From an archaeon GW2011_AR5 (lineage in GTDB: Archaea > Aenigmatarchaeota > Aenigmatarchaeia > GW2011-AR5), in NCBI GenBank assembly GCA_000806115.1, contig JWKQ01000001.1:217784-281783 (forward strand): a stretch of 64,000 nucleotides of DNA, in the 5' to 3' direction. Numbering within the stretch: the stretch's first letter is position 1; each line of letters opens with the position of its first letter. The notes beneath the pieces are model-generated. The model saw only the letters and a list, made by a program, of their open reading frames with translations, ran no database searches and was not told where the DNA came from. A program made the translations under genes and the position numbers. Shown here in pieces: positions 28,519 through 63,005 of this stretch.

Positions 28519-28667
28519 TGGGCCCGACGAGATTCGAACTCGCGACATCCTGCTAACCTTTTTAGAAAAAAGCTTAACCAAAAACTTCTTTCTATATTAA
28601 GAGGCAGGCGCTAGCGGCGTATGAAATGCGAAGCATTTCGTGCACTACCAGGCTGAGCTACAGGCCC
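28519..28667 (-). tRNA. tRNA-Lys(CUU) with two introns (32 nt in the D-arm and 43 nt at 37/38)
   Basis: The spliced reading is GGGCCTG TA GCTC AGCCTGGTA GAGC G CCTGC CTCTTAA GCAGG ATGTC GCGAG TTCGAAT CTCGT CGGGCCC A. The 74 nt of exon plus 75 nt of intron equals the 149 nt observed. Confidence 0.8.
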
Positions 28668-51237: not shown

Positions 51238-51431
51238 GGGCTCGTGGTCTAATACAAATCCCTTCTTTGTAAAGAAGGTCTTTGTGAACCCCAAGAAACA
51301 GAGGGCTTCGCAAATATTAGGGATTTGTGGAGATTGGAATGACACTACGTTCGCATAACCTTTCCAGACCTCATGAAAACGGAAGGGTTCGAGGCACGTA
51401 GAGGCTCCGGGTTCAACTCCCGGCGAGTCCA
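51238..51431 (+). tRNA. tRNA-Ala(CGC) with two introns (82 nt in the D-loop, 51254-51335; 40 nt at 37/38, 51356-51395)
   Basis: Features: acceptor GGGCTCG/CGAGTCC with G3:U70; anticodon stem CTACG/CGTAG; loop TT-CGC-AA; T-arm CCGGG TTCAACT CCCGG. Exons total 72 nt and introns 122 nt, which equals the 194 nt observed. Confidence 0.75.
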
Positions 51432-52083: not shown

Positions 52084-52217
52084 GGGCTCGTGGTCTAAAC
52101 TGGAAAAGCTTTTCTTTTGGCAGCAATGGAAAAGAACTATTATCCAGAGTGATGCTTCCATGGCATAGAGATTTTCGCCGAAGGAAGAGGCTCCGGGTTC
52201 AAATCCCGGCGAGTCCA
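52084..52217 (+). tRNA. tRNA-Ala(GGC) with two introns (44 nt at D-arm position about 21/22, 52106-52149; 16 nt at 37/38, 52166-52181)
   Basis: It has the same acceptor and T-arm as the other tRNA-Ala, including G3:U70. The anticodon stem is CTTCC/GGAAG and the loop is AT-GGC-AA. Exons of 74 nt plus introns of 60 nt equal the 134 nt observed. Confidence 0.75.
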
Positions 52218-53939: not shown

Positions 53940-54026
53940 GGGACGGTAGCTTAGCCTGGTAGAGCACTTGACTGATATCGCATGTCAGAGATCAAGAGGT
54001 CGCCAGTTCAAATCTGGTCCGTCCCA
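53940..54026 (+). tRNA. tRNA-Ile(GAU) with a 13-nt intron at 37/38
   Basis: The reading is GGGACGG TA GCTT AGCCTGGTA GAGC A CTTGA CTGATA[TCGCATGTCAGAG]A TCAAG AGGTC GCCAG TTCAAAT CTGGT CCGTCCC A. Confidence 0.85.
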
Positions 54027-58202: not shown

Positions 58203-58222
58203 AGTAATAATCACGAAGACCA

Positions 58223-58290
58223 AAGGTCGAGTCTGAACCCTTTCTTGGGGTTAAGACCTAGACCTTCTTTCGGGAAAGAAGGGATTGGTA
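58223..58290 (+). ncRNA. structured intercistronic element, copy 1 (rpl23/rpl2 junction)
   Basis: Hairpin A is AACCC 58236-58240 with GGGTT 58248-58252. Hairpin B is CCTTCTTT 58263-58270 with AAAGAAGG 58275-58282. It ends in GGGATTGGTA directly before ATG 58291. The copy is about 85 percent identical, by eye, to 62942-63005. Confidence 0.5.
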
Positions 58291-62503: not shown

Positions 62504-62929
62504 ATGAAAGAATTTTCAGTAAAATGGATCTCGAGCAAGCAGCCCAGGAAGCAGAGAAAATACCGTTATAACGCTCCGATGCACGTCAGGCAGCGGCTCG
62601 TGAGCGCGCATCTCGAGAAAATGCTCCGCAAAGAATACGGCAAGAGGTCGCTTACCGTGAGGAAGGGCGACGAAGTCAGGATAATGACCGGGCAGTTCCG
62701 CGGCACGCGCGGCAAAGTATCGCGCGTGGACATGAAGGCGCTGAAGGTTTACGTCGAGAACGCAAAGATGAAGAAGGTCTCCGGGCAGGAAGTGGAAGTT
62801 GCAATAGACCCGAGCAACATAATGATAACAAAGCTGAACTTCGACGACAAGAGAAGAAGGAAGTTCATAATCAGGAAAGGCAAGAAGCAGGAAACGAAAG
62901 AAACCGGAGGAAAGGCAAAGGGAAAATAA
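62504..62929 (+). CDS. rpl24: 50S ribosomal protein L24 (uL24)
   Basis: Features: SKQPRKQRKYRYNAPMHVRQRL and VRKGDEVRIMTGQFRGTRGKV. Confidence 0.92.
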   Translation: MKEFSVKWISSKQPRKQRKYRYNAPMHVRQRLVSAHLEKMLRKEYGKRSLTVRKGDEVRIMTGQFRGTRGKVSRVDMKALKVYVENAKMKKVSGQEVEVAIDPSNIMITKLNFDDKRRRKFIIRKGKKQETKETGGKAKGK

Positions 62930-62941
62930 TATCCGAAACCG

Positions 62942-63005
62942 AAGGTTGAGTCAAACCCTTCTTTGGGGTAAGACCTAGACCTTTCTTCGGAAGAAAGGGA
63001 TTGGT
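62942..63005 (+). ncRNA. structured intercistronic element, copy 2 (rpl24/rps4e junction)
   Basis: Hairpin A is ACCC 62955-62958 with GGGT 62966-62969. Hairpin B is CCTTTCTT 62980-62987 with AAGAAAGG 62991-62998. It ends in GGGATTGGT directly before ATG 63006. Confidence 0.5.

Follow-up and report, generated by a model that had tools for sequence, protein, structure and literature searches.

Seven predicted introns, D-arm insertions included, in four tRNA genes of a Candidatus Aenigmatarchaeota archaeon

Why should all four tRNA genes in one stretch of an archaeal genome be interrupted, three of them twice, and can the interrupting sequences be introns? The question is raised by a stretch of 64,000 nucleotides (nt; the window), which corresponds to C1:217784-281783 of the organism's own genome (G000; genomes of relatives are numbered from G001 upward, and loci in them carry L-numbers). 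A sequence-only reading had proposed four genes here, for tRNA-Lys(CUU), tRNA-Ala(CGC), tRNA-Ala(GGC) and tRNA-Ile(GAU), and all four are present at the coordinates it gave, each with at least one insert and three with two. Our results indicate that the four are very probably functional tRNA genes of a DPANN archaeon, each present in a single copy, and that seven archaeal introns of the protein-spliced kind interrupt them. The genome comprises 858 kb in three contigs with 49% G+C and an estimated completeness of 87.6%, and resembles a metagenome-assembled genome (MAG). Judged by its relatives in the tRNA splicing endonuclease EndA, the organism belongs to Candidatus Aenigmatarchaeota, as the 70 closest EndA loci in public genomes come nearly all from MAGs of this phylum, recovered from groundwater and sediments, with identities up to 86%. 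The sequence-only reading had rightly listed some DPANN among the lineages with such introns.

The strongest evidence for introns, in our analysis, comes from relatives in which the same sites are empty. The tRNA-Lys(CUU) gene, 28519-28667(-), takes 149 nt for a mature tRNA of 74 nt, and CCA is not encoded. Its exons (28667-28645, 28612-28598 and 28554-28519, minus strand) are separated by a predicted 32-nt intron at position 22/23, in the 3' strand of the D stem (28613-28644(-)), and by a predicted 43-nt anticodon-loop intron at 37/38 (28555-28597(-)). In G005, a species of the same genus, tRNA-Lys(CUU) equals the window gene minus exactly gene positions 24-55, which are the 32-nt D-arm insert, and the exons abut as GGCAG^AGCG (^ marks a join or cut here and below). 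The 43-nt intron is 95% identical there, with compensatory changes in its inner helix; across G005, G017, G019, G013 and G027 it is kept at 82-95% identity, also with compensatory inner-helix changes. The G004 gene has inserts at 22/23 and 37/38, and its D intron is a homologous 32-nt sequence in the same site. Between the window and G004 this intron differs at 9 of 32 positions and the exons at 1 of 74, and two pairs of the intron hairpin are changed on both sides. Other arrangements were also observed. The G013 gene has inserts at 30/31 (13 nt, in the anticodon stem) and 37/38, and its uninterrupted D-arm, like that of G020, reads GCTCAGCCTGGTAGAGC; G006 and G007 carry inserts of 77-82 nt near position 20 and of 42 nt near 34/35; and G020, G041 and G042 have tRNA-Lys genes without introns. 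The Lys exons are nevertheless 73/74 identical in G004, G013, G006 and G007.

The two Ala genes behave in the same way. The tRNA-Ala(GGC) gene, 52084-52217(+), 134 nt long, has a counterpart in G006 that is identical to the spliced product at 74 of 74 exon positions, lacks the D insert and bears a different anticodon-loop intron of 72 nt, and in G002 and G003 this tRNA gene is intron-less. Syntenic orthologues of tRNA-Ala(CGC), whose gene lies at 51238-51431(+) and spans 194 nt, have a D-loop intron at 16/17 in G005, G007 and G038, a 15-nt intron at 21/22 in G002, G006 and G009, and no D-loop intron in G001, G017 and G012; the 37/38 intron is present or absent across the orthologues, and those of G017 and G012 are fully intron-less. 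Because exons are identical at 73-74 of 74 positions across species while the inserts differ, move or vanish, the inserts are not products of chance. The same mature tRNA with differing interruptions is the pattern expected of introns, and neither pseudogenes nor assembly errors would give this pattern. Intron content turns over fast; species of one genus share a mature tRNA and differ in its intron sites.

Genes of this kind are poorly served by standard tRNA finders, as the sequence-only reading had warned. In the window, the Rfam tRNA model RF00005 at its gathering threshold detected Ile (61.4 bits), Lys (39.5 bits) and Ala(GGC) (35.4 bits); in each alignment, the D and anticodon regions contained unaligned blocks of 39+45, 50+23 or 14 nt. 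tRNA-Ala(CGC) fell below the gathering threshold and was also missed in lax scans of the window; a scan of the whole genome returned only a mis-registered 111-nt match of 30.7 bits. We rejected this 111-nt reading (51321-51431), which starts within the intron, has A3:U70 in place of G3:U70 and fails to form a D stem; the 194-nt reading is preferred because its 5' exon is common to Ala(GGC) and to the orthologues. With and without its intron mode, ARAGORN detected one of the four window genes, and the intron mode turned Lys into Leu(aag) and Ala(CGC) into Pro(tgg). Genome-wide it gave a wrong anticodon for most interrupted genes, and it was applied to spliced sequences only. From the 74-nt spliced sequences of Lys, Ala(GGC) and Ile it obtained full cloverleaves, called tRNA-Lys(ctt), tRNA-Ala(ggc) and tRNA-Ile(gat), while a canonical cloverleaf of Ala(CGC) was obtained by a module parse, so that the proposed restoration of canonical structure upon intron removal was borne out for all four genes. 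The G3:U70 pair, said to be kept in the Ala genes, was seen in both. T-arm-anchored, 5'-end-anchored and lax Rfam scans yielded no fifth tRNA gene in the window, and no split or permuted arrangement was seen there, all four genes being colinear and contiguous.

The number and approximate places of the introns stood as proposed, and so did the lengths of 32, 43, 40, 44, 16 and 13 nt; three boundaries moved by 1-2 nt, namely both in Ala(GGC) and that of the Ala(CGC) D-loop intron, for which 80 nt is more likely than the proposed 82. The exons of Ala(GGC) are 52084-52105, 52150-52166 and 52183-52217(+). Its 44-nt D-loop intron (52106-52149(+)) is placed at 21/22, giving the join CTGGAA^TGATG. Only the cut ...CTGGAA^...CCAGAG^TGATG provides the central helix CUGG/CCAG, in a relaxed motif with weak flanking helices, and the cut proposed earlier, 2 nt upstream, has one of four central pairs. 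The corrected cut yields the D-loop AAACUGGAA, which is the uninterrupted sequence of G006, where the D-arm reads GTCTAAACTGGAATGATG. The 16-nt anticodon-loop intron (52167-52182(+)) is most likely at 38/39, with the predicted join TGGCAT^GGAAG; this cut has the central helix UGGC/GCCG with a 3' bulge of just 2 nt and leaves U38 in the loop AUGGCAU, which is also found in the intron-less Ala(GGC) of G002 and G003 and in G006. The 37/38 alternative leaves A38 and has one of four central pairs. The tRNA-Ile(GAU) gene, 53940-54026(+), spans 87 nt, with exons 53940-53977 and 53991-54026 and a 13-nt intron at 37/38 (53978-53990(+)) in a canonical bulge-helix-bulge (BHB) motif. Its central helix CUGA/UCAG is flanked by the bulges UA^U and AG^A, the four central pairs are accompanied by five outer and one inner pair, and the cut, with the predicted join CTGATA^ATCAAG, is the best of 2,013.

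tRNA-Ala(CGC) is the most extended of the four genes. It begins 1 nt past the stop codon of the upstream open reading frame (ORF), and was parsed into the acceptor GGGCUCG/CGAGUCC, the anticodon arm CUACG-UUCGCAA-CGUAG, a variable loop of 5 nt and a normal T-arm, with extra sequence of 40 nt in the anticodon loop and about 80 nt in the D-loop. The exons are 51238-51253, 51334-51355 and 51396-51431(+), and the neighbouring Ala(GGC) gene has an identical 5' exon. The 40-nt intron at 37/38 (51356-51395(+)) forms a strict hBHBh' motif with 5-bp outer, 4-bp central and 9-bp inner helices; its cut, with the predicted join TTCGCA^ACGTAG, is the best of 14,532 in the gene and is reproduced by the minimum free energy (MFE) fold. 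By BHB geometry, the D-loop intron lies at 16/17 (51254-51333(+)) and is 80 nt long, its 3' end being uncertain by up to +2 nt. The 80-nt cut joins ...GTCTAAT to a next exon starting TTGGAATGAC (predicted join GTCTAAT^TTGGAA), has an HBh' motif with a 4-bp central and a 9-bp inner helix, and ranks fourth or better among the 14,532 cuts, as against 734th place for the cut of 82 nt. Because D-loops in relatives measure 7, 8 and 9 nt, a length of 80-82 nt is left open, with 80 favoured.

To be spliced by protein, each junction should be able to form a BHB or relaxed motif, and seven of seven can. All possible cuts in each gene were scored by a rule that asks for a central helix of 4 bp and bulges of 3 nt and sets the cut behind the second nucleotide of the bulge; it was calibrated on the canonical 37/38 introns of Ile and Ala(CGC). 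The central helix has 4/4 pairs in six of the seven introns and 3/4 in the Lys 37/38 intron, and three of the seven are the top-ranked cut of their own gene. The full hBHBh' form with a long inner helix is seen in the Ala(CGC) 37/38 intron and, save for its mismatch, in the near-canonical Lys 37/38 intron (one C.A mismatch, 5-bp outer helix, long inner helix in register; predicted join CTCTTA^AGCAGG), and in Ile the inner helix is minimal. Outer helices are weak in the D-arm introns. That of Lys combines a complete central helix UGGU/GCCG with the 3-nt bulges AG^U and CU^A and one-pair flanking helices, carries an internal 7-bp hairpin, and would leave the join GGTAG^AGCG. The central helices also appear in MFE folds of the precursors. 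A brute-force enumeration of relaxed BHB motifs, with ARAGORN run on each spliced variant, was discarded; it over-fits, giving hundreds of 'valid' tRNAs per gene and spurious extra introns. No known RNA family, such as C/D box small RNA, was found inside any of the introns by Rfam at lax thresholds.

Taken together, the geometry and the comparisons support the view that the inserts, those at non-canonical D-arm sites included, behave as archaeal BHB-type introns, and suggest that all seven are cleaved out and their exons ligated. Each gene would be transcribed as a precursor, in which exon and intron segments would pair into a BHB or relaxed form with a 4-bp central helix, bulges and one or both outer helices weak. 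A single alpha-type EndA, presumably a homotetramer, would then cleave two nucleotides into each bulge, and RtcB would join the exons. Genes for both proteins lie outside the window. RtcB is encoded at C1:388035-390800(-) in a frame of 971 aa (PF01139, 487 bits), its Pfam match being split (1-50 and 49-426) by an intein-like insertion of about 479 aa. EndA is encoded at C2:183233-183721(-) in a frame of 224 aa, which matches PF01974 (92.8 bits) and PF02778 (53.4 bits), and its best relative of solved structure is the Methanocaldococcus jannaschii enzyme (1A79, E=2.7e-32). The sequence-only reading had suggested an alpha2beta2 or epsilon2 enzyme; we found neither, as there is one alpha-type gene with both Pfam domains.

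Against the 1A79 enzyme, EndA has a basic insertion of six residues (KKGPKS) just before the catalytic His, in the loop LKKGPKSAKEH. The segment GVQLKKGPKSAKEH aligns without gaps with GVIPKKGKRSEREH of the Nanoarchaeum equitans alpha subunit (3IEY_A, NEQ205). From that paper's description, the insertion is most likely the 'L3' loop of Kaneta et al. (2018; PMC5829648). The loop may help EndA to accept relaxed motifs. Of the catalytic triad Tyr/His/Lys, one of the marks of alpha4-type EndA, Tyr and His are conserved, but Ala stands where M. jannaschii has Lys156 (RARM vs RKKL). This position is Ala, Ser or Thr in all of the more than 60 relatives, and the KKGPK loop is nearly invariant among Aenigmatarchaeota and Nanohaloarchaeota homologues.

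The introns might be real and yet be removed by an (alpha-beta)2 endonuclease, like those of N. equitans and Crenarchaeota, with a structural beta subunit that escaped detection. Classically, (alpha-beta)2 and epsilon2 enzymes are the ones associated with non-canonical introns (PMC4033280; PMC5829648), the loop in the catalytic domain is common to the N. equitans alpha subunit, and about 12% of the genome is missing. However, a phmmer search of EndA against all ORFs of at least 50 aa gave no second paralogue below E=0.9, and the PF01974, PF02778 and NCBIfam beta-subunit models matched only the one EndA gene. EndA was matched in 38 of the 40 relatives searched, most of which have a single significant copy of alpha size, genomes at least 90% complete among them; G007 has two. 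The protein also has a full N-terminal and C-terminal domain, as has M. jannaschii alpha, and Kaneta et al. (2018; PMC5829648) describe loop-bearing alpha4 enzymes from DPANN whose tRNAs are disrupted. We thus consider a hidden beta subunit improbable, and EndA is presumably an alpha4-like homotetramer.

Several points weigh against introns with these boundaries being removed by this enzyme. Of the 7,872 cuts in the Lys gene, 61 equal or better the geometry of its D intron, and for the D intron of Ala(GGC) the figure is 117 of 6,102. Relaxed motifs are frequent by chance, so the boundaries of these two introns rest on the relatives and not on the motif. The choice between 38/39 and 37/38 in Ala(GGC), and that between 80, 81 and 82 nt for the 3' boundary of the Ala(CGC) D intron, are not fully settled. 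As the genome is 87.6% complete, the remainder could harbour a beta subunit. Finally, EndA has Ala at the Lys156 site, and its chemistry is therefore not simply that of the textbook enzyme.

Where could such introns come from? The long Ala(CGC) intron had been described as structured and as containing a repeat-like string. It does have a ACAAATCCC...GGGATTTGT stem and a hairpin CCTTCTTTGTAAAGAAGG, and copies in relatives together with a profile match show it to be, over its entire length, one copy of a mobile element that is dispersed. In a search of 60 relatives, up to 19 element copies per genome were found. The best copies are 89-94% identical across the whole intron and not the exon, and they sit in other genes of relatives, including relatives of other genera. 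Some follow AGCTCAG(T/A) in the D-loop of tRNA-Asn(GUU) in G030 and G027; others lie in Thr(GGU) of G005 and G034, in Arg-like tRNAs of G028 and G021 and in the T-loop of a tRNA of G016. Rfam gave no name to the host genes of most copies in relatives, and the hosts were read by eye from the flanking exons. All of the best copies share the orientation of the host tRNA. Pairwise, the intron scores 40 against the tRNA-Ser(GGA) D intron of its own genome (shuffles 17.4+/-3.5) and 73 against the Ala(CGC) D intron of G038, which belongs to a different family of the order. A blastn-short search of the five longer introns against their own genome gave only matches of 12-17 nt, and the kinship of introns and repeats emerged only from the profile and relative-genome searches. 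On these grounds at least the Ala(CGC) D-loop intron is evidently a copy of a mobile element of about 80 nt.

One 94% identical copy, L134 (G006 C4:1263-1345), lies within G+C-rich, structured-looking sequence that is not a tRNA, between GGAGGCTAGATTGGGTGGGTAGCGGGCACCTGT upstream and GATTGCCATCAACCCGC... downstream. Rfam gave the host gene of L134 no name; possible hosts include other RNA genes with introns, such as those of the signal recognition particle RNA or RNase P RNA.

The reverse complement of the same intron matches a second set of repeats (nhmmer E=0.003; pairwise score 59 vs shuffles 17.4+/-3.1). About 25 of these occur in G000, each of about 85 nt and ending 7-9 nt before the ATG of a ribosomal-protein or translation gene, such as rps4e, rpl6, rpl19e, rps3ae, aIF2-beta and thiI. 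They contain a TATA-like AATAATAT, a long covarying stem with the loop TTCTTTT, a hairpin CCTTTTCTT..AAGAAAAGG and then GGATCGAT. Two lie in the window, at 62923-63005(+) and 58205-58289(+), and others at C1:282748-282835(+), C1:42812-42726(-), C1:66463-66384(-) and C2:121785-121868(+). No link between tRNA introns and leader repeats was found in the literature searched. These observations allow a broader and tentative proposal, to which we give somewhat less than an even chance: a mobile element of about 80 nt creates and moves tRNA introns in Aenigmatarchaeota, entering D- and T-loops and at least one other RNA gene in one orientation; its opposite strand acts as a TATA-plus-hairpin promoter or 5'-leader module; and the lone EndA, having lost the catalytic lysine, may use a lysine of the loop. 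If true, one repeat family would serve as a spliceable intron on one strand and as a promoter or 5' leader on the other.

An insert derived from a dispersed repeat also lends some colour to the idea that the four genes are pseudogenes, inactivated by a small repeat like a miniature inverted-repeat transposable element, with wobble decoding by other tRNAs, such as Ala(UGC) and Lys(UUU), taking over. The CGC and GGC isoacceptors of Ala and the CUU isoacceptor of Lys can indeed be dispensable in some small genomes. However, the exons agree at 73-74 of 74 positions between species whose inserts have diverged or moved, and each insert is flanked by a 4-bp helix and bulges in the proper register. 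About two thirds of the tRNA genes of the genome are interrupted, single-copy essential ones among them; scans of the genome found no uninterrupted duplicates of the four tRNAs; and EndA and RtcB are conserved. Inactivation is thus very unlikely. Still less credible, to the point of being negligible, are chimeric joins within tRNA genes through faulty assembly or binning, which a MAG-like assembly of three contigs and 87.6% completeness might invite, since the same genes carry homologous or otherwise placed inserts in dozens of independent assemblies, their removal gives a perfect cloverleaf, and the inserts show compensatory changes.

A T-arm-anchored scan together with Rfam recognized about 35 tRNA genes in G000, of which about 10 are uninterrupted and 12 have inserts in the D region; about two thirds exceed the length of a mature tRNA. 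The phenomenon itself is known. In Thermoproteales, genes with multiple introns (Sugahara et al., 2008) and intron transposition (Fujishima et al., 2010) have been described, as reviewed in PMC4033280. The present genome is similar in having several BHB-type introns per gene, non-canonical sites including the D-arm, most tRNA genes affected, and similar introns in different tRNA species, which implies transposition. In contrast to Thermoproteales, it is a DPANN genome of about 0.86 Mb from a group of mesophilic groundwater MAGs; the place of their (alpha-beta)2 enzyme with a crenarchaeal loop in the N-terminal domain is taken by a lone alpha-type EndA with a loop in the C-terminal domain; and one intron family is related, in reverse, to promoter or leader repeats of protein genes.

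Similarities and differences also exist with other DPANN. Here as there, an ultrasmall archaeon has multiple non-canonical tRNA introns, and finders give incomplete tRNA sets. ARMAN-1 and ARMAN-2 reportedly have disrupted tRNA genes and an epsilon2 EndA, in work attributed to Fujishima in 2011, and N. equitans has disrupted tRNA genes and an (alpha-beta)2 EndA. Unlike in these, no three-unit epsilon enzyme or beta subunit was found in our genome, and the extra loop, with its gap-free alignment, is shared with the N. equitans alpha subunit. In its one-unit architecture of N- and C-terminal domains, its similar size and its catalytic Tyr and His, EndA resembles the alpha4 enzyme of M. jannaschii (1A79), from which it differs by the KKGPKS insertion and the Ala at Lys156. 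The M. jannaschii enzyme accepts strict BHB motifs only. Kaneta et al. (2018; PMC5829648) described loop-bearing alpha4 EndAs in several DPANN lineages, accompanied by more disrupted tRNA genes, and such genes in Woese-, Pace- and Nanohaloarchaea. Aenigmatarchaeota are absent from the 46 species of that study and from the list in the 2014 review (PMC4033280), and are a new lineage for multi-intron tRNA genes.

Aenigmatarchaeota join the few lineages that have most of their tRNA genes interrupted by multiple, oddly placed introns. The comparisons of empty sites show that intron sites turn over within one genus as the mature tRNA stays constant, and the corrected exon coordinates bear on the tRNA complements and completeness estimates of DPANN MAGs. 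Our results also support the published suggestion that a one-subunit, loop-bearing EndA can accompany relaxed substrate choice, and among the sources of non-canonical introns they indicate a specific mobile element.

Some further observations concern other genes and repeats. The tRNA-Ile gene at C2:200812-200947(-) has the anticodon UAU and not the usual archaeal CAU, with a canonical 62-nt intron at 37/38. At C2:257662-257678 of G000, between tRNA-Val(GAC) and tRNA-Thr(CGU), 17 nt are identical to the hairpin of the Lys D intron (GAAATGCTTCGCATTTC); they could mark a further interrupted tRNA gene that escaped detection. The 3' half of the Lys 37/38 intron (~GAAGTTTTTGGTTAAGCTTTTTTCTAAAAAGGTTA) has many matches of 20-35 nt at 90-100% identity in relatives, five exact 21-mers in G043 among them, which suggests that this half, too, goes back to a hairpin repeat with dispersed copies. 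Another intron family, CAGCCCTTTCT..AGAAAGCGCTGGCGGAAAGAAC, was recognized by eye (L085, L087, L088, L110, L111 and G000 C1:432695-432865). It occurs in the Ala(CGC) anticodon-loop introns of G002, G006 and G007, in the Lys D intron of G008 and in a tRNA of G000, and, reverse-complemented, in the 37/38 intron of tRNA-Lys(CUU) of G004.

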